Origin: a virus
Lineage: Duplodnaviria; Heunggongvirae; Uroviricota; Caudoviricetes
Reading direction: 5' to 3' (one strand)
DNA length: 64,000 nucleotides
IMG/VR virus record: IMGVR_UViG_2718218131_000002
Shown: positions 662 to 58,335 of the stretch, in pieces
How positions within the stretch are numbered: position 1 is the stretch's first letter
How the letters are laid out: the number at the start of each line of letters is the position of its first letter
Made by a program: the position numbers and the translations under genes
The notes under the pieces: generated by a model
The model's database searches: none
What the model was told of the DNA's origin: nothing
What the model saw: only the letters and a program-made list of their open reading frames with translations

Positions 662-1556
662 ACGCCCACTGGTTATAAACACGCAGCTGGCAATGAAAAT
701 TGGCTTAAACGAAGCCATTGTTTTGCAACAACTGCACTACTGGTTGAGAGATACCAACTCCGGCATGGAATGTGATGGTGTTCGCTGGATTTATAACACA
801 ACGGAACAATGGCTGGAACAGTTCCCATTCTGGTCAGAGTCAACGTTAAAGCGCGCGTTTGCAAGTCTGAAAACGCTGGGGCTTTTGCGTTGTGAAAAGC
901 TCAATAAATCAAAGCGCGATATGACCAATTTCTACACGATCAACTACGGGAGCGAGCTTTTAGATGGTGGCAAATTGAGCGAATCCATCGGTTTAAAATG
1001 CGCCGCTCCATCAGGTCAAAATGACACGATGGAAGAGGTCAAAATGAAACGCTCCATTGGTTCAAAACGACTCAATGTCATCGGGTCAAAATGGCCTGAT
1101 GATCTTACAGAGAATACAACAGAGATTACTACAGAGAATAAAAAGACTTCTCGTCCGGAAGCTTCGCAACCGGACCCGCAGACGGTTGAACAGGATTTTT
1201 TAACCCGACACCCTGACGCGGTTGTGTTCAGTGCGAAAAAACGCCAGTGGGGCAGCCAGGAAGATTTGGCGTGTGCGCAGTGGATCTGGGGGCGAATCGT
1301 GAGTCTTTACGAGCAGGCCGCCAGCGATGATGGCGAGATTTCGCGACCGAAAGAACCCAACTGGACCGCATGGGCCAACGACGTGCGCACAATGCGGATG
1401 CTGGATGGCAGAACTCACAGACAAATTTGTGAAATGTTTGGTCGGGTGCAGCGGGATCCATTCTGGGTAAAAAATATCATGAGTCCGTCAAAGCTTCGCG
1501 AAAAATGGGATGAACTGGTTATCCGCCTGGGCGTTCGTCTGTACAGCGTTGTGTGA
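588..1556 (+). CDS. replication initiation protein, lambda O-like C-terminal domain
   Basis: C-terminal ~90 aa align with lambda gpO C-terminus (W..WANDVR.MR..DGR.HR..C..F, SP.KLR.KW); contains internal iterons; true start may be the Met at 642. Confidence 0.6.
   Translation: MLSSLRIDSNTNKKLDGIMSLLFAERPLVINTQLAMKIGLNEAIVLQQLHYWLRDTNSGMECDGVRWIYNTTEQWLEQFPFWSESTLKRAFASLKTLGLLRCEKLNKSKRDMTNFYTINYGSELLDGGKLSESIGLKCAAPSGQNDTMEEVKMKRSIGSKRLNVIGSKWPDDLTENTTEITTENKKTSRPEASQPDPQTVEQDFLTRHPDAVVFSAKKRQWGSQEDLACAQWIWGRIVSLYEQAASDDGEISRPKEPNWTAWANDVRTMRMLDGRTHRQICEMFGRVQRDPFWVKNIMSPSKLREKWDELVIRLGVRLYSVV
1035..1150. repeat. putative prophage replication origin: three GGT(C/T)AAAA(T/C) iterons plus A-rich tract inside the O-like gene
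   Basis: Iteron-like direct repeats at ~1037, 1059 and 1083 followed by an A-rich stretch, as in ori-lambda. Confidence 0.35.
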
Positions 1557-1646
1557 ATCATATTTCTGAGCCGGATACCGAAATTCCGCCGGGCTTCAGG
1601 GGGTAAGTGTTAATTTCTGGTCATGAGGTAATTTTCAGGAGGGCTT

Positions 1647-2069
1647 GTGGCAAAAGTTTTTACACAAGAAGAGCGGGAAAAAATTAAAGGGCAGGTTGTT
1701 GAACTCGTACGCCGGAGTGGGCGTGAGACGTTACGGCAACTGGAAGTCAAGACAGGTGCGACAAGATATCTGATGAGCGTTCTCGCAAGAGAGCTGGTTG
1801 CCAGCGGCGATGTATACAACTCTGGTTACGGGTTATTCCCGTCTGAACAGGCGCGTAAGGACTGGCAAAATGCCCGTAAAAAGCTCTCAAGGGCAAAGCT
1901 GAAGGAACCATCTGCGGTTGATCCGGACCTTATCTGGTCATTACCTGACGGAGAAATACGTCGCTACGACAGGCGTCAGAACATAATCTGTCGCGAGTGC
2001 CGGAAGAGTGAAGTTATGCAGCGCATACTAGCATTCTATCAGGGAAATGCTCGATATTTATTGAAGTGA
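1647..2069 (+). CDS. hypothetical phage protein (in the position of lambda P, not P-like)
   Basis: 140-aa ORF after the O-like gene; no P/DnaC-like motif seen. Confidence 0.35.
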   Translation: MAKVFTQEEREKIKGQVVELVRRSGRETLRQLEVKTGATRYLMSVLARELVASGDVYNSGYGLFPSEQARKDWQNARKKLSRAKLKEPSAVDPDLIWSLPDGEIRRYDRRQNIICRECRKSEVMQRILAFYQGNARYLLK

Positions 2070-2321
2070 TGAGATTAAAGTTTATTAGTTCAGATATTGA
2101 TTGGCTCTTTTGTGGAGTAGGGTAGAGTTAGTGTGTTTGTCTGCTTGGTGCCAGCAGCGGATATGTTTAACAACAGAAAGCATTCAGCATGGTTAGTGGA
2201 TTTGCAAAGTGGATTAGGATTTGAGAAACTTTGATGAAGTTGTAAAGCTTGTTTCTATAAAAATAGAAATTTAACTAATAGTTAAACACACCTCCAGCTT
2301 CATTGAAAAGGATTATTAGCT

Positions 2322-2609
2322 ATGATTGATCCACTTATTAGAAACTTACAGAGTGATATTGCACTACTCCAGCTTTATATCGCGCAACGCAAACAGGCAG
2401 GCTTTCATGACATGGAAAGAATAATTGAGTCATTGACCATCTTTATGTTTCGCGCGCTGAAAATGGGTGAACTGGTAAACATGAATCAGATTAAAGTTAA
2501 TTTTCCCGCCATTGATTTAGCTGATAATAAAAACATGATAGCAGTTCAAGTTACTACGAATGCAAGTCCAGCAAAAATTAAAAAACTATCGAATCTTTTG
2601 AGAAAATAA
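2322..2609 (+). CDS. SMEK-like N-terminal domain ORF, probable 5' part of a frameshifted gene
   Basis: AT-rich; motif NFPAIDLADNKNMIAVQVTTNASPAKIKK resembles SMEK-type N-terminal domains; the downstream ORF frame is open back into this one. Confidence 0.35.
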   Translation: MIDPLIRNLQSDIALLQLYIAQRKQAGFHDMERIIESLTIFMFRALKMGELVNMNQIKVNFPAIDLADNKNMIAVQVTTNASPAKIKKLSNLLRK

Positions 2610-2725
2610 ATGAAATAGGAGAGAGTCTGAAAGATAAATACTCTACTTTATATATTTTTGGTTTTTGTAAAGCCTCAAGATACCTAACTCCAAGTTATTG
2701 TAAAATAATCGACCCCAGCTATTTC

Positions 2726-3220
2726 GTGAATGAACTTTGCGATAAAGCAGATGAAGATATGGTCCAGGATATGATTGACGCCATTCGACGCCATCATGAT
2801 TATACATCATTACATCCATGGAGTGATAAAGATTCACTCGAAATTATACTCAATATTATTAATCGCAATGCAATAAAACATCGGATGAGTTGCGAAGGCA
2901 GTCTGTCTGATATGCTCACTGGTTTAAAAGAAATTAATGAAGTAATTACAAAAGGAACAATTCAACGTAAGCAACGTTCAAAATCGATATCTGACTTCAA
3001 AGATCAAAGCATGGTGAAATTTATGAGAGGTGTAATGGATGATTTGTCTGTTATTCAAGCCATAGTGAACAAATCTAAAGTTAACCAAGGTGATATGGTT
3101 TATATAAGCCATGAAGATATGATTAATATTGATAAATTAAAAGCTAAAATAGCAAGTGATTCATCAGAGATTGCAAGGCTAAATAATATTGATATAACAC
3201 TAAATGTTGTTGATTTATAA
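2726..3220 (+). CDS. hypothetical protein, probable 3' part of the same SMEK-like gene
   Basis: Frame has no stop back to at least 2582, overlapping the end of the previous ORF; listed start is GTG. Confidence 0.35.
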   Translation: MNELCDKADEDMVQDMIDAIRRHHDYTSLHPWSDKDSLEIILNIINRNAIKHRMSCEGSLSDMLTGLKEINEVITKGTIQRKQRSKSISDFKDQSMVKFMRGVMDDLSVIQAIVNKSKVNQGDMVYISHEDMINIDKLKAKIASDSSEIARLNNIDITLNVVDL

Positions 3221-49344: not shown

Positions 49345-50571
49345 ATGGATAAACTACTTGAGCGATTTTTGAACTACGTGTCTCTGGATACCCAATCAAA
49401 AGCAGGGGTGAGACAGGTTCCCAGCACGGAAGGCCAATGGAAGTTATTGCATCTGCTGAAAGAGCAGCTCGAAGAAATGGGGCTTATCAATGTGACCTTA
49501 AGTGAGAAGGGCACTTTGATGGCGACGTTACCGGCTAACGTCCCTGGCGATATCCCGGCGATTGGCTTTATTTCTCATGTGGATACCTCACCGGATTGCA
49601 GCGGCAAAAATGTTAATCCGCAAATTGTTGAAAACTATCGCGGTGGCGATATTGCGCTGGGTATCGGCGATGAAGTTTTATCACCGGTTATGTTCCCGGT
49701 GCTGCATCAGCTACTGGGTCAGACGTTGATTACCACCGATGGTAAAACCTTGTTAGGTGCCGATGACAAAGCCGGTATTGCAGAAATCATGACCGCGCTG
49801 GCGGTATTGCAACAGAAAAACATTCCGCATGGTGATATTCGCGTCGCCTTTACCCCGGATGAAGAAGTGGGCAAAGGGGCGAAACATTTTGATGTTGATG
49901 CCTTCGATGCCCGCTGGGCTTACACTGTTGACGGTGGTGGCGTAGGCGAACTGGAGTTTGAAAACTTCAACGCCGCATCGGTCAATATCAAAATTGTCGG
50001 TAACAATGTTCATCCGGGCACGGCGAAAGGAGTGATGGTAAATGCGCTGTCGCTGGCGGCACGTATTCATGCGGAAGTTCCGGCGGATGAAAGCCCGGAA
50101 ATGACAGAAGGCTATGAAGGTTTCTATCACCTGGCGAGCATGAAAGGCACCGTTGACCGAGCCGATATGCACTACATCATCCGTGATTTCGACCGTAAAC
50201 AGTTTGAAGCGCGTAAACGTAAAATGATGGAGATCGCCAAAAAAGTGGGCAAAGGGTTACATCCTGATTGCTACATTGAACTGGTGATTGAAGACAGTTA
50301 CTACAATATGCGCGAGAAAGTGGTTGAGCATCCGCATATTCTCGATATCGCCCAGCAGGCGATGCGTGACTGCGATATTGAACCGGAACTGAAACCGATC
50401 CGCGGCGGTACCGACGGCGCGCAGTTGTCGTTTATGGGATTACCGTGCCCGAACCTGTTCACTGGCGGTTACAACTATCATGGTAAGCATGAGTTTGTGA
50501 CTCTGGAAGGTATGGAAAAAGCGGTGCAGGTGATCGTCCGTATTGCCGAGTTAACGGCGCAACGGAAGTAA
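49345..50571 (+). CDS. pepT: peptidase T (tripeptide aminopeptidase)
   Basis: [19 protein letters not shown]... matches E. coli PepT. Confidence 0.95.
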
Positions 50572-50619
50572 GCGAAAAGGGATGCGGCATGTGATGCCGC
50601 ATCCGGCTTAAATCCAAAC

Positions 50620-51741
50620 TTACCCTTCGAAGAACCAGTATCCGCTATTGACCAGCGCCGCGAGCATCGCGAGGAATGACGGATCTTCCAGCGCATCGCC
50701 AAAATTCTCCGCGGTCAGCGCAATGTTGCTGGCGAGTGCATCCAGTGCCGGACGGTGCGGGGAATCGATCTTCTCACCATTGGCATACACGTCGTCGCCA
50801 ATGCGCAATACGCGCAGACCACCCAGGCGCACCAGCACATCACCTTGTTTCAGCGCATCGTAGATTTCATCTGGCTGATAAGGCGGTTCCGGCGGCGCGA
50901 TATCCAGTTCATGACGTGACTGGGATATAAACTCGCCAAACCATTGCTTAAAGTGTTCCGGCTGGTTGATCAATTCGAGCATCATCTCACGCAGTTTATC
51001 CATTTCTTGCGGCAGAACGTCCGCAGGATGAGCGCGAGGTGGAACATCCGGATCGCTGTAGTAGTTGCCGCCCAGTTCACGTTGCAGCACATAATCGGCA
51101 AATCCGCTAATTAATTCCCGCGTATTTGGCGCGCGAAAACCCACGGAATAGTTCATCGCATTTTCCAGCGCGTAGCCTTCATGCGGGAATCCTGGCGGAA
51201 TATAAAGAATATCGCCAGGCTCCAGCTCTTCATCGATGATGGCTTCGAACGGATCGACCTGTAACAGATCCGGGTGTGGGCAGTGCTGTTTCATTTGCAG
51301 CTTTTCGCCCACTCGCCAGCGACGACGTCCGGTACCCTGAATGATAAACACGTCGTACTGATCGAGATGCGGGCCGACGCCGCCGCCAGGTACAGAAAAA
51401 GAGATCATCAGATCATCAATACGCCAGTCCGGTAGTTCACGGAACGGTCGCATCAGCGCGGCGGTCGGCTCATGCCAGTGATTTACTGCTTGCACTAACA
51501 ATGACCAGTTAGTTTCACCGAGATGATCGTAGCTTTCGAACGGACCGTGGCTGACCTGCCATTTGCCATCCTGGTGACTGACCAGTCGACTGTCGACTTC
51601 GCTTTCCATCGCCAGACCCGCCAACTCGTCTGGAGAGATCGGGTCAATAAAATTATTAAAGCCGCGTTTTAACACCACCGGGCGTTTCTGCCAGTGACGT
51701 TCAAGAAAATCGGGCCAGTTAAGAGTGAGTTGGTATTCCAT
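50620..51741 (-). CDS. roxA: ribosomal protein uL16 arginine hydroxylase RoxA (YcfD)
   Basis: MEYQLTLNWPDFLERHWQKRP..., cupin/JmjC-like. Confidence 0.9.
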   Translation of the reverse strand: MEYQLTLNWPDFLERHWQKRPVVLKRGFNNFIDPISPDELAGLAMESEVDSRLVSHQDGKWQVSHGPFESYDHLGETNWSLLVQAVNHWHEPTAALMRPFRELPDWRIDDLMISFSVPGGGVGPHLDQYDVFIIQGTGRRRWRVGEKLQMKQHCPHPDLLQVDPFEAIIDEELEPGDILYIPPGFPHEGYALENAMNYSVGFRAPNTRELISGFADYVLQRELGGNYYSDPDVPPRAHPADVLPQEMDKLREMMLELINQPEHFKQWFGEFISQSRHELDIAPPEPPYQPDEIYDALKQGDVLVRLGGLRVLRIGDDVYANGEKIDSPHRPALDALASNIALTAENFGDALEDPSFLAMLAALVNSGYWFFEG

Positions 51742-51968
51742 GTTAAGCATCCACAGGCTGGTATCTGCAACCGATTATAACGGATGCTTAACGTAATGCG
51801 TGAAGTATGGACATACTTTATCAATTAGTGTTTTTTGCCGTTTCATAATGTTTCAGGTTGTGCATTATGTTTTTGATTATAAACAAATTTGTGATTTTTC
51901 TTGTTCCAGCTTGTTTCACGTTGTAGCCCTTTGTGCAACGATCGGTGTAGTTAATGGTGTAGTTAATT

Positions 51969-53219
51969 GTGATGACCGGATTCAAAATTATGAGCAGAGC
52001 ACTTAACAAGCTGAGCGATACACAGCTAAGGAAAATCAACGGCACACCCGCCCAAAAAACAGCCTTTCTTAATGACGGTGGAAACTTGAGCGTCAGGCAT
52101 TCAACCAGCGGCCTTTTAACCTGGTATTTCACTTACAGGGCCGGAACGGGAAGGGGGGCATCACCGGAACGCATTAAGCTGGGAAATTATCCTGATCTGA
52201 GCCTGAAATCAGCCAGGGAAAAAGCCGCCCAGTGTCGCGCATGGCTGGCTGAGGGGAAAAATCCACGTCATGAGATGAATTACACCGTACAGGAAGCGTT
52301 AAAGCCTGTAACGGTTGGCGATGCGCTCACCTACTGGCTTGAGTCGTACGCAAAGGAAAACCGTGTGGATTATGACCCACTGAAAAAGCGGCTAAATAAT
52401 CACGTAATACAGCACATTGGCCCTATGCCGCTGGATAAATGCGAGCTACGGCACTGGCTGGCCTGTTTTGATCGGGTGGCAAAGCAAGCCCCTGTTTCCG
52501 CCGGGTTCCTGCTACAGACATGCAAACAGGCGCTTAAGTTCTGCCGGAAGCGGCGCTATGCAATCAGCAACGTTCTTGATGATATGAGTGTGGCTGACGT
52601 TGGGAAAAAACCGGATATAGGCGAACGTGTCTTAAGCACCAAAGAACTGGGCCAATTATTGCAGGCACTGGACAAAAAAATATTTTCCCCTTACTACGTC
52701 GCACTAATCCGCCTCCTGATTGTTTTCGGATGCCGGACAGTAGAACTGAGGTTATCGGAGATCGGCGAGTGGGATTTTACCGAAATGCTCTGGACCGTTC
52801 CGAAGGAGCACAGCAAAACGAAGGTGGCCATATTCCGGCCCATACCGGAAGCGATACTGCCGTTCATCACGCAGCTGGTGGAGCAGAACAGGCACACGGG
52901 CTTATTGCTGGGGGAAGTGAAACAGGAAACCAGCGTGTCGCAGTACGGCAGATTAGTGCACAGGAGGCTTAAACACCCTCACTGGTCACTGCATGACATC
53001 CGGCGCACCTTTACAACGATGCTGAACGATTTAGGCGTGGATCCTCACGTCGTGGAGCAGCTTACAGGCCACCAGATGCCAGGAATGCAGCGAGTTTATA
53101 ATCATTCCCGTTATCTGGATGCGAAACGCAATGCGCTGGATATGTGGGTGGAGCGGTTGGAGATACTGGCGGGAGCACATGAAAACGTAACCACGCTACC
53201 AGTATCCAGAAGAAAATAA
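51969..53219 (+). CDS. int: tyrosine integrase (P4-like)
   Basis: C-terminal catalytic region with R...HDIRRTF...Y; adjacent to the left repeat; true start may be 51990. Confidence 0.85.
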   Translation: MMTGFKIMSRALNKLSDTQLRKINGTPAQKTAFLNDGGNLSVRHSTSGLLTWYFTYRAGTGRGASPERIKLGNYPDLSLKSAREKAAQCRAWLAEGKNPRHEMNYTVQEALKPVTVGDALTYWLESYAKENRVDYDPLKKRLNNHVIQHIGPMPLDKCELRHWLACFDRVAKQAPVSAGFLLQTCKQALKFCRKRRYAISNVLDDMSVADVGKKPDIGERVLSTKELGQLLQALDKKIFSPYYVALIRLLIVFGCRTVELRLSEIGEWDFTEMLWTVPKEHSKTKVAIFRPIPEAILPFITQLVEQNRHTGLLLGEVKQETSVSQYGRLVHRRLKHPHWSLHDIRRTFTTMLNDLGVDPHVVEQLTGHQMPGMQRVYNHSRYLDAKRNALDMWVERLEILAGAHENVTTLPVSRRK

Positions 53220-53593
53220 TTTTTTTCGTGTTTTTTCAGTATGCGCATACTGGATAAGTGCACAGATACAACGTGAAACAATACGCAACAACGTGAAACA
53301 ACCACGAACAAGAGGCCAAAAAGTATACAGATTTATAAGTTGCTGATTTTTAATGATCAACTGGTTTTTTATACATTAGCGAATAACGCTTTAAATAGTG
53401 AGAAAAAAGGCATAAAACGAGATTTTATGCCTTTGCATAACACTGAATTAAAATATATTTTATTAAAATAACCCCGTTTCTGTAAAATACCCGCCACCAA
53501 CATTTGCCAACTCTGAATCACCCTGACACAATCAGACACATCCCAACGCAATAGAACACGAAATAACTCTTTAAGAAACGAAAGGGGGCAATA

Positions 53594-53782
53594 GTGTTAA
53601 GCACTGATCGGTTTATACGTGAAAAAGAATGCGAAAAGCTAACAGGCCTTAGCCGCTCATGCCGCTACCGCCTGGAAAAGGCCGGACAATTCCCATCACG
53701 GCGTAAGCTGGGCGGTCGTTCCGTTGGCTGGTCTTTATCCGAAGTTCTGGCATGGAAGGACAGCTGCGAGGCAGTTCACTAA
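53594..53782 (+). CDS. alpA: AlpA-family excisionase/transcriptional regulator
   Basis: 62 aa from GTG with good SD; HTH LTGLSRSCRYRLEKAGQFPSRRKLGGRSVGWSLSEV. Confidence 0.7.
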   Translation: MLSTDRFIREKECEKLTGLSRSCRYRLEKAGQFPSRRKLGGRSVGWSLSEVLAWKDSCEAVH

Positions 53783-54109
53783 TCAGGCTGGCGGCACACA
53801 GCCGCCACGCATCCACTAATACAGAGATCTAACCATGAATACTGGATATACGCCCGAACAGGGGCGGGGCTTCGTTCGGCCTGGTGAAACTGAAAAACAA
53901 CAAAATCGCGGTTTTTCAGACATAAAAAAAGCGGCCCCGATAAGGAGCCGCCTTTCTGAACAATTAACCTACTGCGCAAAAAATGAATCTGAGCAGGGGA
54001 ATTATATCAGCCAGGTGACGAAGCGCCACAATTGCCGGATAACGGGCAAAGAAAAGGCCACCTGTCACGGTGGCCAATGTGATCAGTGTGGTGGTTTGCT
54101 GGTGGATTG

Positions 54110-54289
54110 TCAGCCTTTTGGCACAATACCGCGCTGTTGTAATTCTTTACGGATTATTCGCTTTATCCAGGCAGCAAGAGAATCATCGCCGTCCTGTTGT
54201 TGTGCTTTTTCCATCTTTTCCCGTAAGTCAGGATCTAAACGAAACTGGAACGGAGGATTACCACGCCTTTCGTTTTTGTGTGTTGACAC
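54110..54289 (-). CDS. small YlcI/YnfO-like (DUF3950-type) protein, GTG start
   Basis: 59-aa ORF (VSTHKNERRGNPPFQFRLDPDLREKMEKAQQQDGDDSLAAWIKRI) not in the supplied track; paralogous to the 18116-18340 protein. Confidence 0.35.
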   Translation of the reverse strand: MSTHKNERRGNPPFQFRLDPDLREKMEKAQQQDGDDSLAAWIKRIIRKELQQRGIVPKG

Positions 54290-54349
54290 GTTAATTACAC
54301 CTCATGTAATGTATTTATGTGTAGTGACACATTACACACAATCAGCACA

Positions 54350-54480
54350 AAAAGCAAAGCCCCGCAAGTGTCGTTACCACTGGCAGGGCTTATAACCACA
54401 AACCGTTATGAGAGGTAGTTTTATGGCTGTAAGACAGCATACCCCACGCCTAGCGCACACACAAACGGCCTTTGTGTGGC
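54350..54480 (+). repeat. copy 1 of a ~125-bp imperfect direct repeat (hairpin AAGCCC...GGGCTT plus start of an Icd-like ORF)
   Basis: Near-identical to 55088-55225. Confidence 0.6.
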
Positions 54481-54511
54481 GTAATCGATTTCATGATTTC
54501 ACTTTTCACAA

Positions 54512-54739
54512 TCAGCCAGGCGGTCGGTTTTTGCCGGATTTAAGCCGCCGTGGGTATTTATCGACAAAATCTTCAAGGGCAAATTTTTCTGGTGGCACTA
54601 AGCGCGGCGCTGGTGGTGGTATTTTTGTTCTGGTTAGTTCTTCCTCAAGTCTGGCGCAGGCTTCTGACTGCCTTTGCCGGATGATTTCATCATCTTGCGT
54701 TTGCGTGTCTTGTATTGGTGATAGTGTGTTGTTGGTCAT
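54512..54739 (-). CDS. hypothetical protein
   Basis: 75-aa ORF downstream of the RHH gene on the minus strand. Confidence 0.3.
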   Translation of the reverse strand: MTNNTLSPIQDTQTQDDEIIRQRQSEACARLEEELTRTKIPPPAPRLVPPEKFALEDFVDKYPRRLKSGKNRPPG

Positions 54740-54796
54740 GATACTGCCCTGTAAAGCAATGCGCCGTAGTACCTCACACCACGGCGCTAGTGATGG

Positions 54797-54976
54797 TTAC
54801 TCCTGCTCTTTGGCCTTCCTGCGCTGGCGGCGTTTGATCTCGCCTTGCATTGACGCAATGATGAATTGTGATGTGCTTTCGCCTGATTCTTTCACTAATT
54901 CCATGGCGTTTACTATTTCGTGTGGTACACGAGCCTTTAGAGCTTGTGATTTTGCGTTTGTTGTACCCGTTGCCAT
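54797..54976 (-). CDS. ribbon-helix-helix DNA-binding protein (putative island repressor)
   Basis: MATGTTNAKSQALKARVPHEIVNAMELVKESGESTSQFIIASMQGEI fits a strand-helix-helix pattern; divergent from the operator-like repeats. Confidence 0.45.
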   Translation of the reverse strand: MATGTTNAKSQALKARVPHEIVNAMELVKESGESTSQFIIASMQGEIKRRQRRKAKEQE

Positions 54977-55042
54977 TTCTATTCCTCTGTTGGATTGGTG
55001 GGGGACAGTATACACAGAAAAAGCACAAATAAAACCCTTGAC

Positions 55043-55078
55043 GTGGACCACACCTAAAGAATATAGTGGGCCACACCT
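55043..55078. promoter_or_regulatory. two direct operator-like repeats GTGG(A/G)CCACACCT flanking a candidate -10 of the RHH gene promoter
   Basis: Repeats at 55043-55055 and 55066-55078; minus-strand TTGACA...TATATT promoter overlaps. Confidence 0.35.
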
Positions 55079-55087
55079 TAAGGTTGT

Positions 55088-55225
55088 CAAGGTGCATAAA
55101 TGCAAAGCCCCGCAAGTGTCGTTACCACTCGCAGGGCTTATAACCACAAACCGTTAACAGGAGTAACGATTATGGCTGGAACACAGCATACCCCACGCCT
55201 TGCGCACACACAAACCGCCTTTGTG
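55088..55225 (+). repeat. copy 2 of the ~125-bp imperfect direct repeat
   Basis: Same hairpin, SD and first ~20 codons as copy 1. Confidence 0.6.
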
Positions 55226-55369
55226 TGGCGTTTTCTGGCACTGAGTGCCGGAGAATCTCAAATTATCCACGTGACCGCCTGGACGGAACGCGAAGCGCGT
55301 AACCGTTGCCCGTCCGGTTGTGTCGCTGTATTCGCCGCCCGTATTCGTCAGGAGGTGTGCCATGCCTGA
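55172..55369 (+). CDS. small Icd-like protein (P4-type cell-division-inhibitor family, tentative)
   Basis: 65 aa (MAGTQHTPRLAHTQTAFVWRFLALSAGESQIIHVTAWTEREARNRC...); stop overlaps the next gene start. Confidence 0.4.
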   Translation: MAGTQHTPRLAHTQTAFVWRFLALSAGESQIIHVTAWTEREARNRCPSGCVAVFAARIRQEVCHA

Positions 55370-55682
55370 TATGTCAAATTACCAGTACCTGATTAATCCG
55401 CATTTTAACTGTGAGCATGATATTGCTAAAAAGGTTTATTCTGCTGCGGATGAGGCTACTGACAATATATCAATGGCTGTTGCGTCAATTGGTAGCCTGA
55501 TGTGGTATGCGTCAGAAAATGAGGAATATGACGAAAAGGCTATGCGCATTGACATGGGGAATATTGGCTTGTTACTGGCAATGCTTGGGCAGTTTGATAT
55601 TTCGTTACGGTGCACCATTGAAAATGCCACAGATGCATTAAATGCCATAAAGAAAGCGAATACTGATTCAAATCGGGGATAA
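55362..55682 (+). CDS. hypothetical satellite protein
   Basis: 106-aa ORF with strong SD (AGGAGG). Confidence 0.35.
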   Translation: MPDMSNYQYLINPHFNCEHDIAKKVYSAADEATDNISMAVASIGSLMWYASENEEYDEKAMRIDMGNIGLLLAMLGQFDISLRCTIENATDALNAIKKANTDSNRG

Positions 55683-55688
55683 ATAATC

Positions 55689-55988
55689 ATGAGAACATAT
55701 TTATCTGGCTTGACTGCCAGCGGTTATGCACACCCAAAAATTATCCCCGGCGCTATTTATCTGGATAAGAACGGTAACAGAGTAACGGTAAAAGAACTGA
55801 TGTTTGACCGTGTTTATTTTATTCGTGATGGATATTCATTTCTTAGTTCGCTGAACGTGGAGATCTTTATTTGCAGATTCCGGCGGGAAATCCCGACTTC
55901 CAGAAATAACCATGTGTCACGTGTGGATGTGGATAAAAAACTACAGGAACTGAAAAACATGATTGCCGCGTGGAGAGAGCAGAAATGA
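55689..55988 (+). CDS. hypothetical satellite protein
   Basis: 99-aa ORF overlapping the primase start. Confidence 0.35.
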   Translation: MRTYLSGLTASGYAHPKIIPGAIYLDKNGNRVTVKELMFDRVYFIRDGYSFLSSLNVEIFICRFRREIPTSRNNHVSRVDVDKKLQELKNMIAAWREQK

Positions 55989-57802
55989 AAAAAGCGCCAA
56001 ATTTAAAACACCAGCCGCGTGACAAAATGACGGAAGTCATCATTTTTGCGGGTAGTGATGCGTGGGCACATGCGAAGCAGTGGCAGGAACAGGACGGGCG
56101 ACTGGCTGGCGATAACGTGCCACCTGTCTGTCTTGGAGAGCAACAACTTGCCGAACTGGACAACCTGCAAATCGTACCGGACGGACGCTATCGCGTGCGT
56201 CTCTACCAGGCGGGGTTATTGCGTCCGGGGCTTGTTAATACCATCGGGCAGAAACTGGCAGCGGCAGGTGTCAGGGATGCTGATTATTACCCTGAAGGAA
56301 TGCACAGCCAGAAACGGGAGAACTGGCGCGAATATCTGGAACGTGAACGGGCAGAGCAGGCGGAAAAGAAAAAGGTAGTTGAACTGCCTGTAAAGAAAAA
56401 AGAGCGGGTAAAAGACGATAACGCTTCATCACTGGCGCTTAACCAGATGGGAGCAAGTCAACGCGGCGAAGTTCTCCTGGCACATTATGGCGGTGAACTG
56501 GCGATTCATGCTGACTCTGACACTGTTCACCATTACAACGGCGTTGTATGGGAGCCAGTACAGGATAAAGAATTACAGCGAGCTATGGCACAGATTTTCA
56601 TTGATGCGGAGATCAGCTATTCGCAGAACGCCATTAAATCGGCGGTCGATACCATGAAGTTAAGTTTGCCTGTAATGGGGAATACAGCCCGTAACCTGAT
56701 TGGATTCAGTAACGGGGTATTTGATACCAGAACAGGTAATTTTCGGGAGCATAACAAAAACGACTGGTTGTTAATTGCCAGTGAATTACCTTTCAGCCCA
56801 CCAGCAGAGGGGGAAACGCTGGCAACACATGCGCCGAATTTCTGGAAGTGGTTACGCCGTTCGGTGGCTGAGAATGACCGCAAGGCGGATCGCGTACTGG
56901 CTGCATTATTCATGGTGCTGGCGAACCGGTACGACTGGCAGTTATTCATTGAGGTAACAGGTCCAGGGGGAAGTGGTAAAAGCGTGATGGCGGAGATTTG
57001 CACCATGCTGGCGGGTAAGGCTAATACAGTATCAGCGAGCATGAAGGCGCTGGAAGATGCAAGGGAACGCGCGTTAGTGGTTGGCTTTTCGCTGATTATC
57101 ATGCCGGATATGACCCGCTACGCTGGTGATGGGGCGGGAATTAAGGCTATTACAGGCGGTGACAAGGTGGCAATCGACCCAAAACATAAAGCCCCATATT
57201 CAACTCGTATCCCGGCAGTAGTGCTGGCGGTTAACAATAACGCTATGTCATTCAGTGACCGCAGTGGGGGGATCTCACGTCGTCGGGTGATATTCAATTT
57301 TTCGGAAGTTGTACCGGAGAACGAACGTGATCCAATGCTGGCGGAAAAAATAGAAGGTGAGCTGGCGGTAGTGATTCGCCATCTGCTTACACGGTTTGCT
57401 GACCAGGACGAAGCCAGACGCCTGTTATATGAGCAGCAGAAATCTGAAGAAGCACTGGCGATAAAGCGAGAGGGGGATTCGCTGGTGGACTTCTGCGGCT
57501 ATCTCATGGCGTCGGTAATGTGTGATGGCCTGTTAGTGGGTAATGCTGAAATTGTGCCATTCAGCCCACGCAGGTATCTCTATCATGCCTATCTGGCTTA
57601 TATGAGGGCACATGGGTTTGGTAAACCTGTAACACTGACGCGCTTCGGTAAAGATATGCCGGGGGCAATGGCGGAATATGGCAGGGAGTATATGAAACGG
57701 AAAACGAAGCACGGTTTGCGTTCAAACGTGACACTGACGGAGGAATCAGAAGACTGGATGCCATCATGTGTATCGGTCACTAATGACGATAGCAAAAATT
57801 AA
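55970..57802 (+). CDS. P4-alpha/D5-type primase-helicase (replication initiator)
   Basis: Walker A VTGPGGSGKS and P4-type primase C-terminal region; followed by iterons. Confidence 0.8.
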   Translation: MERAEMKKAPNLKHQPRDKMTEVIIFAGSDAWAHAKQWQEQDGRLAGDNVPPVCLGEQQLAELDNLQIVPDGRYRVRLYQAGLLRPGLVNTIGQKLAAAGVRDADYYPEGMHSQKRENWREYLERERAEQAEKKKVVELPVKKKERVKDDNASSLALNQMGASQRGEVLLAHYGGELAIHADSDTVHHYNGVVWEPVQDKELQRAMAQIFIDAEISYSQNAIKSAVDTMKLSLPVMGNTARNLIGFSNGVFDTRTGNFREHNKNDWLLIASELPFSPPAEGETLATHAPNFWKWLRRSVAENDRKADRVLAALFMVLANRYDWQLFIEVTGPGGSGKSVMAEICTMLAGKANTVSASMKALEDARERALVVGFSLIIMPDMTRYAGDGAGIKAITGGDKVAIDPKHKAPYSTRIPAVVLAVNNNAMSFSDRSGGISRRRVIFNFSEVVPENERDPMLAEKIEGELAVVIRHLLTRFADQDEARRLLYEQQKSEEALAIKREGDSLVDFCGYLMASVMCDGLLVGNAEIVPFSPRRYLYHAYLAYMRAHGFGKPVTLTRFGKDMPGAMAEYGREYMKRKTKHGLRSNVTLTEESEDWMPSCVSVTNDDSKN

Positions 57803-57815
57803 ACTTATGGAATAA

Positions 57816-58045
57816 CTGTTCACCACTGTTCACCCTGTCATAAATATCTTTTGTATCAGTATGTTATAGGGTGAACAGTTATTTATGAACTGTTCACCAA
57901 ACTATTCACTGTTCACCTTTTTGATTGTTTATTGAGCTTCAAGGGTGAACAGTGGTGAACAGTTGGTGAATAGTTTTTGTGAAACTGTTCACCCCTTAAC
58001 ATTATGAATTAAAAGATAAAATATCAAAAGGTGAACAGGTGAAGG
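57816..58045. repeat. satellite replication origin: at least 9 copies of GGTGAACAG / CTGTTCACC iterons in both orientations
   Basis: Dense iteron cluster immediately 3' of the primase gene. Confidence 0.7.
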
Positions 58046-58089
58046 GTTAAAACGCAAAAATTTTAATTTACTGCTGTGAGATAAAGCCT

Positions 58090-58335
58090 ATGACAGCGAA
58101 GCACATAAAAAAATCACAATCGCACGCCCTTGATTTGACGGAACACTGGTTAAGGGTGTCGATAAAAATCATCGACCGCAACGCCGGGGAAGGATATGCG
58201 AAAGCACATCCCGAACTGATTAGCGCATTCATGACAACGGCAGCTGCAAACTTTGCCACGCTGACAGAACGGGAGATTGCCGAAGCGGAACAGGTGACAA
58301 CCATCAATGTTAAAACCGGAGAGCAGACAGCATGA
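58090..58335 (+). CDS. hypothetical satellite protein
   Basis: 81-aa ORF. Confidence 0.3.
   Translation: MTAKHIKKSQSHALDLTEHWLRVSIKIIDRNAGEGYAKAHPELISAFMTTAAANFATLTEREIAEAEQVTTINVKTGEQTA

Follow-up and report, generated by a model that had tools for sequence, protein, structure and literature searches.

The window, by which we mean the whole 64,000-nucleotide stretch of viral DNA, matches E. coli PK8241 at 100% identity; in that genome the island sits between roxA and phoQ. The annotation of PK8241 lists int, alpA, an Icd-like gene, DUF4222, a primase, a capsid protein, a decoration protein and terS for this island, and its AlpA-type HTH protein belongs to PF05930. Gram-negative PICIs are recognized by co-oriented int, alpA and pri/rep genes, a length of ~10-15 kb, packaging-interference or capsid genes and a specific att site, and the island annotated in the identical PK8241 genome fits this type. 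The locus considered here (Table 1) is the regulatory region of this PICI-type satellite, with the order int, alpA, ylcI, icd-like and primase. The control region of the prototype, EcCICFT073, is nearly identical to that of the window and has the same operators and hairpin.

Table 1. Features of the control region. Both window copies were part of the seed of R1, our own covariance model.
Feature	Position	Strand	Evidence and remarks
ylcI-1, putative Arc-like/YlcI-like repressor of module 1	54110..54289	-	ORF; PHROG phrog_228 'Arc-like repressor', E = 4.3e-6
Module 1 control region	54273..54334		Plus-strand promoter-like TTGACA (54283-54288)-18-TAATGT (54307-54312); direct repeats 54273-54293 and 54314-54334
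Predicted antisense RNA 1, ~80 nt	54349..54428	-	AGCCAU..., 5' stem-loop, terminator hairpin, U-tract; R1 76.6 bits (seed member)
Repeat copy 1, 'orphan' cassette	54350..54482		Leader, Shine-Dalgarno, ATG at 54423, 20 Icd-like codons; repeat search and MAFFT
Open frame, 244 codons from orphan ATG	54423..55157	+	Antisense to orf75 and ylcI-2; ends 14 nt before icd ATG
Predicted promoter of antisense RNA 1	54436..54464	-	-10 TATGCT (54436-54441) and -35 TTGTGT (54459-54464), reverse complements; 17-nt spacer
orf75, conserved hypothetical	54512..54739	-	3' of ylcI-2; WP_012601535.1 in several genomes
ylcI-2, putative repressor of module 2	54797..54976	-	YlcI/YnfO family NF041551, 65 bits (cutoff 30)
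Module 2 control region	54997..55082		Operator-like O1 55043-55059 and O2 55066-55082; degenerate third site 54997-55008
Module 2 promoter-like site	55038-55067	+	TTGACG (55038-55043)-18-TATAGT (55062-55067)
Repeat copy 2	55098..55231		Holds the leader and codons 1-20 of the full-length icd-like gene; repeat search and MAFFT
Predicted antisense RNA 2, ~80 nt	55098..55177	-	Complements icd Shine-Dalgarno and start codon; R1 77.2 bits (seed member)
icd-like gene, 65 aa	55172..55369	+	NF033153, 64.9 bits; first gene of icd-orf106-DUF4222-primase operon
Predicted promoter of antisense RNA 2, in icd codons 5-14	55185..55213	-	-10 TATGCT (55185-55190) and -35 TTGTGT (55208-55213), reverse complements
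Terminator-like hairpin then UUUUCU, in icd codons 11-22	55202..55238 (stem 55207-55227)	+	Role uncertain

The most conspicuous feature is a 133-nt unit present in two copies that are 91-94% identical. Repeat search and MAFFT alignment resolve each pair into two blocks, 54350-54417 with 55098-55165 (91% identity) and 54421-54482 with 55170-55231 (94% identity), divided by a Shine-Dalgarno segment that varies and contains a 1-nt indel; the copies are spaced 748/749 bp apart. Chance is excluded as the cause of the duplication. Each copy carries one hairpin, one Shine-Dalgarno site and ~20 Icd-like codons, encoding MAVRQHTPRLAHTQTAFVWR in copy 1 and MAGTQHTPRLAHTQTAFVWR in copy 2. An earlier note, made from the sequence alone, had described just such a pair, and both copies were recovered by the repeat search and the alignment. 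The size and separation that it gave (~125 bp and ~740 bp) were underestimates, and the peptide that it took to be shared, MA.RQ, agrees with the translation of copy 1 but not with that of copy 2.

As the note had stated, copy 2 alone extends into a 65-aa Icd-like protein, which matches the NCBIfam family NF033153 'Icd-like' over residues 17-60, well above the cutoff of 25 bits. The icd-like stop codon overlaps the ATG of the next gene (ATGCCTGA). Copy 1 does run into antisense sequence, with orf75 and ylcI-2 on the opposite strand, yet its frame remains free of stops. This absence of stops was unexpected; on the plus strand it extends over the antisense genes, all the way between alpA and icd. 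In the loci L014 and L024 a leader of the copy 1 type is followed by an intact icd gene. No match to orf75 was found in Pfam, NCBIfam or PHROG profiles, and Pfam also gave none for Icd or YlcI. The plus-strand hairpin within icd was considered as a ctRNA-dependent attenuator and set aside; its role is left uncertain since it is missing in L003-type orphan copies (that is, orphans of the type seen in locus L003) and is not evident in other genera.

The small opposite-strand protein that had been noticed between the copies is YlcI-2, a member of the YlcI/YnfO family. Its fold is probably ribbon-helix-helix; Foldseek against the PDB and phmmer and hmmsearch against PDB sequences gave no match. 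The operator-like repeats O1 (GTGGACCACACCTAAAG) and O2 (GTGGGCCACACCTTAAG) have no further match within the 64 kb when three mismatches are allowed. They had been described as flanking the promoter of the ribbon-helix-helix gene. The repeats themselves are there, but the -10 element that they flank belongs to the plus-strand promoter-like site, which would drive icd and not the repressor gene. For ylcI-2 itself the -10 is likely to be TATACT on the minus strand (the reverse complement of 55007-55012); this box is conserved across genera and fits better than an alternative that we rejected, TTGACA-19-TATATT (55090 to 55060).

A second gene of this kind, ylcI-1, and its own, different operator repeats lie just 5' of copy 1 and had been overlooked. 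YlcI-1 scores 20 bits against NF041551, under the cutoff of 30, and is unannotated in the identical RefSeq genome; the homologous ORF of L003 is annotated YlcI/YnfO. A terminator-like hairpin on the minus strand (54075-54056) follows the gene. The two direct repeats of module 1 are 21 nt long and unlike the module 2 operators in sequence. The control region of CFT073 has the same layout as module 2. In Salmonella, Pectobacterium, Serratia, Gilliamella and Citrobacter the operator sequence changes with the YlcI variant while the positions are kept.

In addition to the start of icd, the 133-nt unit most likely encodes a cis-antisense RNA of ~80 nt that spans the ribosome-binding site of icd. RNAalifold applied to 41 leaders and to 31 leaders returned a 5' helix and a terminator helix, with compensatory double changes in 10/18 pairs in the broader leader set. 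The observed pairing exceeded that of 500/500 shuffles and of all slid controls. On the minus strand the region of RNA 1 folds at -29.6 kcal/mol (z = -3.6) and that of RNA 2 at -38.4 kcal/mol (z = -6.1), compared with -20.5 kcal/mol (z = -1.1) for the plus strand of the latter. The minimum free energy is lower on the minus strand in 31/31 variants, averaging -34.3 kcal/mol there and -24.5 kcal/mol on the plus strand. The hairpin has the properties of an intrinsic terminator of minus-strand transcription, judged by its fold and by a U-rich tail that is present 3' of it on that strand alone. Analysis of RNA structure and covariation, which the earlier note had suggested, found conserved structure on the strand opposite to icd.

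A candidate promoter for this RNA lies within the coding sequence of icd. When the leaders are anchored on CAT, the main sequence types have a TAnnnT box, inside icd codons 5-7, at exactly 7 nt 5' of AGCCAT. The box takes the forms TATGCT, TATGAT, TACTAT, TAGACT and TATTAT, the TATGAT type having AACCAT. In the GCTCAT/TCTCAT type (L091 and copy 2 of L003) TACGAT or TATGAT is separated by just 1 nt from the aligned hexamer and stands nearer to CAT. The distance from TAnnnT to CAT is kept despite a diverged 14-nt spacer, for example in orphan copies. The boxes agree weakly with the consensus, at 7-8/12 positions, a promoter scan of the window made no call at the site, and the -35 is poorly conserved beyond E. 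coli. The boxes overlap the conserved Icd residues His6 and HTQT, so their conservation could partly reflect coding constraint.

On balance, the sequence evidence leads us to favour, as the probable explanation, a two-strand control cassette with a cis-antisense RNA, placed at the head of the early/replication operon and doubled by the stacking of modules. The plus strand of the cassette provides icd with its mRNA leader, its ribosome-binding site and its first ~20 codons; the minus strand would be a complete small gene for the ~80-nt RNA. This gene would have its promoter (TTGTGT-17-TATGCT) within icd codons 5-14, a 5' end, AGCCAU, complementary to the start codon, a 5' stem-loop displaying the anti-Shine-Dalgarno CUCC and, as a Rho-independent terminator, the hairpin that the earlier note had seen. 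In the quiescent island the antisense RNA would pair with leaky icd transcripts and stop initiation at icd, a block that the stop/start overlap would carry to the downstream replication genes. The divergent Arc-like YlcI would repress the icd-directed promoter through its GTGGnCCAC operators.

The unit would then be present twice because two heterologous modules, each comprising ylcI, operators, promoter and leader, were stacked in series, probably via recombination in the conserved leader; the duplication itself would be no device. The upstream copy appears to keep an intact antisense gene, with its terminator 3' of orf75 on the minus strand, and its RNA should pair with the downstream leader too: the predicted energy for RNA 1 with leader 2 is -121.9 kcal/mol, compared with -159.8 kcal/mol for the cognate pair.

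The distribution of the cassette bears on this proposal. It precedes icd in 79/79 IMG/VR loci with a readable leader, always on the antisense strand and at 65-95 bits, although such counts overstate the number of independent events since the compared loci are related and mosaic. It is also found in Salmonella, Pectobacterium, Serratia, Gilliamella and Citrobacter; a profile search of genome contigs with the Icd alignment found two loci, and the other genera were reached through YlcI homologues. The Icd-like genes of another island lineage (P0090, the commonest) are without the cassette, which is therefore unneeded for icd as such. A single copy only is present in 73 of the 79 IMG/VR relatives, and likewise in EcCICFT073. 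The second copy is therefore dispensable.

Copy 1 might accordingly be regarded as a scar, the 5' end of an icd gene truncated when orf75, ylcI-2, a promoter and a leader were introduced into an older island by insertion or recombination, and functionless now whatever the role of copy 2. The exact arrangement of the window occurs in 7/5426 complete E. coli genomes, most related islands being single-copy; the similarity between the copies stops abruptly at 54482 in the MAFFT alignment, and mosaic breakpoints are common, for example in CFT073. Against this, orphan copies score 74-95 bits with the RNA model R1, at least as high as functional copies. In L003-type orphans conservation ends just past the -35, and the -10 and -35 are kept while the spacer between them is identical at only 6/14 positions. 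The tandem layout recurs at nine loci with varied module combinations, and in 9/9 of them a frame of 224-355 codons starts at the orphan ATG; as these loci have a common ancestry, this is no more than suggestive. We consider a functionless scar less likely than stacking with an intact upstream antisense gene.

Sense and antisense pairs always have helices in common. Because of this the plus-strand leader could also function, and the stems might be cis features of the icd mRNA alone, such as a 5' stabilizer, an RNase III site or an operator sequestering the AUG, with the minus-strand signals as by-products and no antisense RNA at all. The plus-strand leader can indeed form the same helices, a pairing of AACCA with AUGGYU would sequester the start codon, and the sense-oriented Rfam model R1162 has its matches in both copies on the plus strand. 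The comparison of strands argues otherwise. Canonical pairs fill 98.8% of the cells when the minus strand is read and 86.7% on the plus strand; in 89 cells a G.U of the minus strand would read A.C on the opposite one, and the converse case was not counted once. The plus-strand folds of the two window copies (z = -1.1 and -1.8) are no better than those of shuffled sequences, and the U-run is on the minus-strand side only. Moreover, the distance from TAnnnT to CAT is fixed even in orphans that no longer encode Icd, and an antisense RNA is encoded by both of the closest known relatives, SymR and the R1162 region. Purely cis-acting stems are in our judgement improbable, and we retain the predicted antisense RNA.

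Such an RNA might, by analogy, serve a different end. P1 Icd inhibits cell division, and the Icd-like gene encodes a small protein whose ribosome-binding site is covered by the predicted cis-antisense RNA, so that the two could form a toxin-antitoxin pair of type I that stabilizes the island instead of regulating the replication operon. SymR/SymE has been classed in this way (PMC1891008). The Icd-like protein of the window is only distantly related to that of P1, however; a tblastn search against 50,697 phage records gave one match, itself satellite-like. The gene also heads a translationally coupled operon ending in primase, which fits operon control. We give the toxin-antitoxin role little credence as the main function of the cassette. 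The two roles are not mutually exclusive.

The interpretation offered in the earlier note, an immunity region of the P4/P1 type in which a processed leader RNA acts via short repeats, through premature termination or a translational block, with the two repeats as target and effector, would account for the repeated unit, for an Icd-like next gene as in P1 immI, for the plus-strand hairpin and U-tract within icd and for the potential of copy 1 RNA to pair with copy 2, but no Rfam C4 or CI match was found at E <= 10 in 54300-55300, and this interpretation is made highly improbable by a structure and U-tail opposite to icd, by copies that are whole direct duplicates including the promoter-like boxes instead of short complementary boxes, and by the single copy of most relatives. 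The intuition that a small RNA is involved survives as the predicted RNA, but on the strand opposite to icd and not of the P4/P1 type.

PICI satellites spread virulence and defence genes among enterobacteria. To our knowledge AlpA, an activator, is the only regulator known for Gram-negative PICIs, and the nature of a global repressor is unclear in the literature. The region described here, which is common to the prototype EcCICFT073, offers two candidate silencers, the antisense RNA and a small repressor acting through its operators. Literature searches on SymR with Icd, on YlcI/YnfO, on Icd-like and P4-like elements and on cf-PICI with AlpA returned no account of the predicted RNA or of YlcI as a PICI regulator.

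A bolder proposal, which we put forward tentatively and regard as rather unlikely to hold in full, is that PICIs of the EcCICFT073 type carry a three-layer switch new to the literature, comprising YlcI with its variant-specific operators, a SymR-like RNA and a stop-free plus-strand frame that crosses the antisense repressor genes, promoters and terminators and would keep AlpA read-through translated. If this were true, translated AlpA-driven read-through transcripts would escape Rho and melt the antisense duplex, the orphan Shine-Dalgarno and ATG would act as a re-initiation relay, and one mobile regulatory cassette would be the common source of symER in E. coli and of the copy-control RNA of IncQ. 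Should the unbroken frame be under selection, it would be an unusual reading frame, kept for being translated and not for its product.

Comparison with known systems places these elements in context. Rfam scans of 50000-64000 and 54300-55300 gave no family above its gathering score, the only matches being weak ones to R1162; weak manA and miRNA/snoRNA matches in the region were judged to be noise. The EHEC sRNA Esr41, considered as a candidate for the predicted RNA, is encoded on SpLE1 and unrelated.

The order of genes in P1 immI is c4-icd-ant, and the C4 RNA of P1 and the CI RNA of P4 are processed from the strand of their targets and act via short complementary boxes. In P1/P7 immI an Icd-type small ORF is translated first, gating the downstream genes, and a small RNA gives immunity. 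The window differs in that the structured RNA is opposite to icd and the repeats are whole direct copies, not seqA/B/C-like boxes. The immI region of P22 combines the ribbon-helix-helix repressors Mnt and Arc with the sar antisense RNA directed against the ribosome-binding site of ant. Its logic is that proposed here, with small ribbon-helix-helix repressors at divergent promoters and a short cis-antisense RNA blocking translation initiation at the first downstream gene; the genes controlled are different. Gram-positive PICIs (SaPIs) have the divergent regulatory pair Stl-Str (PMC6092414). In SaPIs, as in the window, the repressor gene is divergent from the excision/replication operon of the satellite; YlcI is an Arc-like protein of ~60 aa, whereas the SaPI repressor is of the Stl type.

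Two antisense-RNA systems are closer. The Rfam model R1162 (RF00043), which is in the repA-sense orientation, matches the plus strand of the two window copies at 30.5 and 24.5 bits, below its gathering score of 55. The family is defined by its location in the repressor F-repA leader of an IncQ replicon, whereas the window copies lie in a chromosomal satellite island. R1162/RSF1010 and the window share, in the same order, a long hairpin, UAACCAC(C)AAC, a small Shine-Dalgarno hairpin and AUGGCU, and in both a small repressor gene adjoins and a replication helicase/primase operon lies downstream. They differ in that R1162/RSF1010 is a plasmid with a co-directional repressor F and repA as the first gene, and the window an integrated satellite with a divergent repressor and icd.

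SymR (RF01809) and the predicted RNA are both cis-antisense RNAs of ~77-80 nt with a promoter in the first codons of the target, as established for SymR (Kawano et al., 2007, PMC1891008) and predicted for the window. The location of the SymR promoter inside symE and translational repression by SymR have been demonstrated experimentally (PMC1891008). The 5' end, AGUCAU in SymR and AGCCAU in the predicted RNA, consists in both of 3 nt and the start-codon complement, with a TAnnnT -10 located 7 nt upstream; the correspondence is clear in Serratia, with TAGACT-GAGTGTC-AGCCAT, and symR, with TAGAAT-GCGTGTC-AGTCAT. Both continue with a 5' stem-loop containing the anti-Shine-Dalgarno, then UUGUGRUUA and a 3' hairpin, which in the predicted RNA is followed by a U-tract that SymR lacks. 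The sense promoter is controlled by LexA for symE and would be controlled by the YlcI operator set here. The SymR target is SymE, with an AbrB fold; here the RNA would act on an Icd-like gene (NF033153) at the head of a satellite replication operon, which places the RNA outside the SymR family as defined by its target. The Rfam SymR model gave no match in the window at E <= 10; on the predicted RNA strand it scores 33.4 bits in Citrobacter and 31.1 bits in Serratia, below the gathering score of 61. Conversely, model R1 recovers SymR at 22.1 bits (E = 0.0012) and the antisense strand of IncQ at 20.4 bits (E = 0.003), with the correct position and orientation. The predicted RNA may thus be a distant relative of SymR and of the IncQ copy-control RNA, and SymR/symE, IncQ copy control and satellite regulation appear to represent one recurring cassette design, possibly homologous.

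The tandem repeat with its Icd-like start is real: the two copies of the 133-nt unit, each a hairpin, a Shine-Dalgarno sequence and about 20 Icd-like codons, are 91% (54350-54417 against 55098-55165) and 94% (54421-54482 against 55170-55231) identical at a spacing of 748/749 bp. The earlier note was also right that the second copy continues into a 65-aa Icd-like ORF (64.9 bits against the NCBIfam model; cutoff 25), that the first runs into antisense sequence, namely the minus-strand genes orf75 and ylcI-2, and that two GTGG repeats resemble operators, the pair being the only two matches in the 64 kb. It had missed ylcI-1, a second and more divergent YlcI-like gene. The P4-type immunity layout that it proposed is replaced here by a predicted SymR- or ctRNA-like cis-antisense cassette in a putative YlcI repressor module, duplicated by the stacking of modules.

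The repeat pair is placed between alpA and the primase gene of a PICI-type phage-satellite island, as annotated in E. coli PK8241, which is 100% identical to the window region and carries the island between roxA and phoQ. Just left of potAB-pepT-roxA are the type III effector genes espO and espK with a tail-fibre fragment, a stretch that is a separate prophage remnant adjoining the satellite insertion site. Among 50,697 phage genomes the sole detectable relative of this Icd-like protein is in LR881103.1 (vB_KppS-Ant, 16.5 kb, 'induced prophage'), a record whose size points to a capsid-forming satellite that was submitted as a phage.

Features of the repeat region and its surroundings in window coordinates
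Feature	Position	Strand	Remarks
espO, espK, tail-fibre fragment	45052-46749 and upstream	-	
PICI-type island	51969-61796		
AlpA-type regulator	53594-53782		Pfam PF05930
Stop-free interval, alpA to icd	53820-55369	+	almost stop-free
RefSeq 'hypothetical protein'	53835-54395	+	186 aa
Hairpin 3' of alpA	53926-53957		flanked by A-run and T-run
Terminator-like hairpin 3' of ylcI-1	54056-54075	-	
ylcI-1	54110-54289	-	PHROG 'Arc-like repressor', E = 4e-6
Module 1 control region	54273-54334		plus-strand promoter-like TTGACA-18-TAATGT; two 21-nt repeats
Copy 1 (orphan)	54350-54482		
RNA 1, predicted	54349-54428	-	
orf75	54512-54739	-	3' of copy 1
Hairpin between ylcI-2 and orf75	54761-54787	-	G+C-rich; GCGCCGTGGTGTGAGGTACTACGGCGC then AUUGCUUU
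ylcI-2 (YlcI/YnfO family)	54797-54976	-	3' of copy 1; 65 bits
Module 2 promoter-like site	55038-55067	+	TTGACG-18-TATAGT
Module 2 operator-like repeats O1, O2	55043-55059, 55066-55082		17 nt, GTGGnCCACACCTwAAG
Small stem between O2 and A-rich run	55073-55095		CACCUU-N9-AAGGUG
Copy 2	55098-55231		
RNA 2, predicted	55098-55177	-	
icd-like gene	55172-55369	+	65 aa
Weak Rfam manA RNA match	61986-62155	+	21.6 bits, gathering 55.2, E = 0.05; between last island ORF and phoQ, near island right end
Annotated island genes besides the AlpA-type regulator			integrase, Icd-like protein, DUF4222 protein, primase, SSB, major capsid protein, decoration protein, small terminase

As ylcI-1 immediately precedes copy 1, the region comprises two modules in series; in each, a minus-strand ylcI gene is followed by a divergent control region containing direct repeats and by the 133-nt unit. 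Loci with YlcI-2 homologues in Salmonella, Pectobacterium, Serratia, Gilliamella and Citrobacter have an identical order of elements: ylcI, a site beside the conserved CAGTATAC, TTGACN, a site, TATAGT, a site, an A-rich run, the hairpin, UCUAACCA, a small hairpin with the Shine-Dalgarno sequence, and AUGGCU. Across these genera the three site positions are constant and the operator core varies in step with the YlcI variant, being GTGGGCCAC in E. coli, Salmonella and Pectobacterium, GTGGGTAAC in Serratia, GTGGGAGTCAC in Citrobacter and TGTTCGACA in Gilliamella. Such co-variation is the pattern expected of a specific repressor-operator pair, as which YlcI and these sites are predicted. In Serratia the two promoter-flanking sites are mutually inverted (control regions of L086, L087, L089, L090 and L091 compared). 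A ribbon-helix-helix fold is plausible for YlcI-2; a PDB sequence search and Foldseek gave no match, and hhalign aligned the expected strand-helix region with Arc at a probability of only 14%.

Several smaller features accompany the modules. The CACCUU-N9-AAGGUG stem, located where the icd transcript is predicted to start, is retained across genera with variable loops and has the same position in L086, L087, L089, L065 and L071. The hairpin between ylcI-2 and orf75, conserved in L002 and L003 within a longer direct repeat, may attenuate the ylcI-2/orf75 transcript internally, and that 3' of alpA may be a bidirectional terminator. The latter and the hairpin 3' of ylcI-1 are both inside the long plus-strand open frame. 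In RefSeq a 186-aa 'hypothetical protein' is annotated on the plus strand here; it is Cys-rich and spans two terminator-like hairpins, and a family search with it found no match. On the opposite strand ylcI-1 is unannotated in RefSeq, and the homologous ORF in L003 is annotated YlcI/YnfO.

The structure of the unit belongs to the minus strand. C.A mismatches of the plus-strand hairpin are G.U pairs on the minus strand, where the A-run 5' of the hairpin becomes a U-tract 3' of it. RNAalifold gave two helices for 41 distinct leaders, a 5' helix AGCCA/UGGUU, of which the start-codon complement is part, and a terminator helix. Canonical pairs make up 98.8% of minus-strand cells against 86.7% of plus-strand cells, and 89 cells have G.U on the minus strand where the plus strand has A.C. 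Paired fraction and covariation score exceeded those of 500 out of 500 shuffles and of all slid controls, and compensatory double changes were present at 10 of 18 pairs when other genera were added (31 sequences). All 31 variants fold better as the minus strand (means of -34.3 against -24.5 kcal/mol) and share one two-hairpin shape, in which CUCC (anti-Shine-Dalgarno) is in or beside the loop of the first hairpin and the second is followed by a U-tail. For the window the minus-strand RNAs reach -38.4 (z = -6.1) and -29.6 kcal/mol (z = -3.6), the plus strand -20.5 (z = -1.1) and -23.5 (z = -1.8).

A promoter for this RNA can be predicted from the alignment of minus strands on the start-codon complement. 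In the main types a TAnnnT hexamer (TATGCT, TATGAT, TACTAT, TAGACT, TATTAT) is exactly 7 nt upstream of AGCCAU; the TATGAT type has AACCAU instead, and in the GCUCAU/UCUCAU type the hexamer is slightly closer. The putative -35 box in E. coli is TTGTGT, 17 nt upstream of the TAnnnT box and within the invariant CACACACAAAC. Diverged orphan copies of the L003 type keep both boxes intact though just 6 of 14 positions of the 14-nt spacer, and their similarity to icd stops directly after the -35 box. Some -10 positions are on synonymous sites, and the third base of icd codon 6 is always T (CAT, AGT or TCT). This candidate promoter is weak by consensus and was unreported by the promoter scan.

The unit is widespread. 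Of 5426 complete E. coli genomes, 967 contain a match to a 134-nt query, and almost all of these matches fall under a CDS named 'Icd-like' or 'ash family'. Among 80 IMG/VR loci collected via the Icd protein, with the leader ignored in selection, it directly precedes icd in all 79 with a readable leader region, and the operators and hairpin of the window recur in EcCICFT073, the prototype Gram-negative PICI. In another, very common island lineage the Icd-like genes have neither ylcI nor the unit, which makes the unit part of the ylcI module rather than of icd in general. The Icd-like variant of that lineage, P0090 (2433 collection blocks; L096-L099), is the most abundant one and occurs in islands with a DUF927 primase; these four loci have no ylcI, no match to our RNA model and a different hairpin before the Shine-Dalgarno site.

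An upstream second copy is present in the window, L002, L003, L011, L063, L065, L069, L071 and L085. These tandem loci are one kind of stack throughout, with differing combinations of ylcI, operator and hairpin type, and the leader type of window copy 1 is that found before complete icd genes in L014 and L024. In EcCICFT073 (L095 2498-2584 against window 55095-55183) operators and terminator hairpin are almost exactly those of module 2; past the hairpin both the Shine-Dalgarno stem and the icd type are those of L003 copy 2, which places a recombination breakpoint inside the cassette, between hairpin and Shine-Dalgarno stem. The duplication probably arose when heterologous islands recombined within their conserved leader. 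Copy 1 may be functional or a scar. It retains the whole predicted RNA gene, whose predicted terminator is downstream of orf75 on the minus strand; RNA 1 and RNA 2 are identical at 70 of 81 positions, and the predicted pairing energy of RNA 1 with leader 2 is -121.9 kcal/mol, that of the cognate pair -159.8.

An unexpected feature is that the plus strand has hardly any stop codons from shortly after alpA as far as icd, across promoters, operators and terminators, when the recognisable genes of this interval are on the minus strand. A 576-nt stretch (53820-54395) ends in leader 1; the following 762 nt hold the orphan ATG (244 codons) and end 14 nt before the icd ATG. Stretches of 1302-1962 nt occur over CFT073, Salmonella and L002: CFT073 has a single 428-aa ORF continuing in frame into icd (L095 1493-2779), Salmonella 1710 nt over antisense BrnT/BrnA and ylcI, and L002 1962 nt; that of L086 is at 1193-2896 (minus strand). 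In 58 unique but related loci the longest stretch is 240-1596 nt on the plus and 228-678 nt on the minus strand, against a mean of about 270 and a maximum of 717 nt in mononucleotide shuffles, a crude null model. The stretches of the window, CFT073, Salmonella and L002 thus well exceed the shuffled ones and also those of the strand with the recognisable genes. A possible explanation is that transcripts reading through from the AlpA-activated promoter must remain translated, so as to evade Rho and open the antisense duplex; the orphan Shine-Dalgarno sequence and ATG would then be a re-initiation point.

We infer functional roles for the predicted antisense RNA and the putative YlcI repressor. 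YlcI would keep the icd-directed promoter closed, and the antisense RNA would soak up leaky transcripts by covering the icd Shine-Dalgarno site and AUG. Because the icd stop overlaps the next start codon (ATGCCTGA) and later genes overlap too, as far as primase, a block of icd translation should lower replication-gene expression. Such coupling would resemble the icd-ant coupling of P1. A type I toxin-antitoxin-like role for the RNA and icd is possible.

This kind of mechanism is already known. The literature searched gave no description of the cassette in Gram-negative PICIs, for which the founding paper describes the global repressor as unclear. SymR has been characterized experimentally: its promoter is inside symE, and the 77-nt RNA represses SymE translation (PMC1891008). 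The real symR locus reads TAGAAT-GCGTGTC-AGTCAT, the Serratia locus TAGACT-GAGTGTC-AGCCAT. Rfam SymR (RF01809; gathering 61) matches the predicted RNA strand of Citrobacter and Serratia at 33.4 and 31.1 bits, and R1162 (RF00043; gathering 55) matches the plus strand of both window copies at 30.5 and 24.5 bits. No gathering threshold is reached, so that the cassette is not a member of these curated families. On an IncQ plasmid the R1162 model is oriented as the sense strand of the repressor F-repA transcript, and the repA start codon is its end; accordingly the window plus strand is similar to the target leader and the minus strand to the countertranscript. R1, our own model of the predicted RNA, finds exactly two copies in the window, both on the minus strand (77.2 and 76.6 bits; seed members), and EcCICFT073 outside the seed (66.5 bits). 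It also detects E. coli symR on the correct strand and in the correct place (22.1 bits, E = 0.0012) and the IncQ antisense strand at repA (20.4 bits, E = 0.003). The cassette has the design of the SymR and IncQ RNAs and is plausibly their distant relative.
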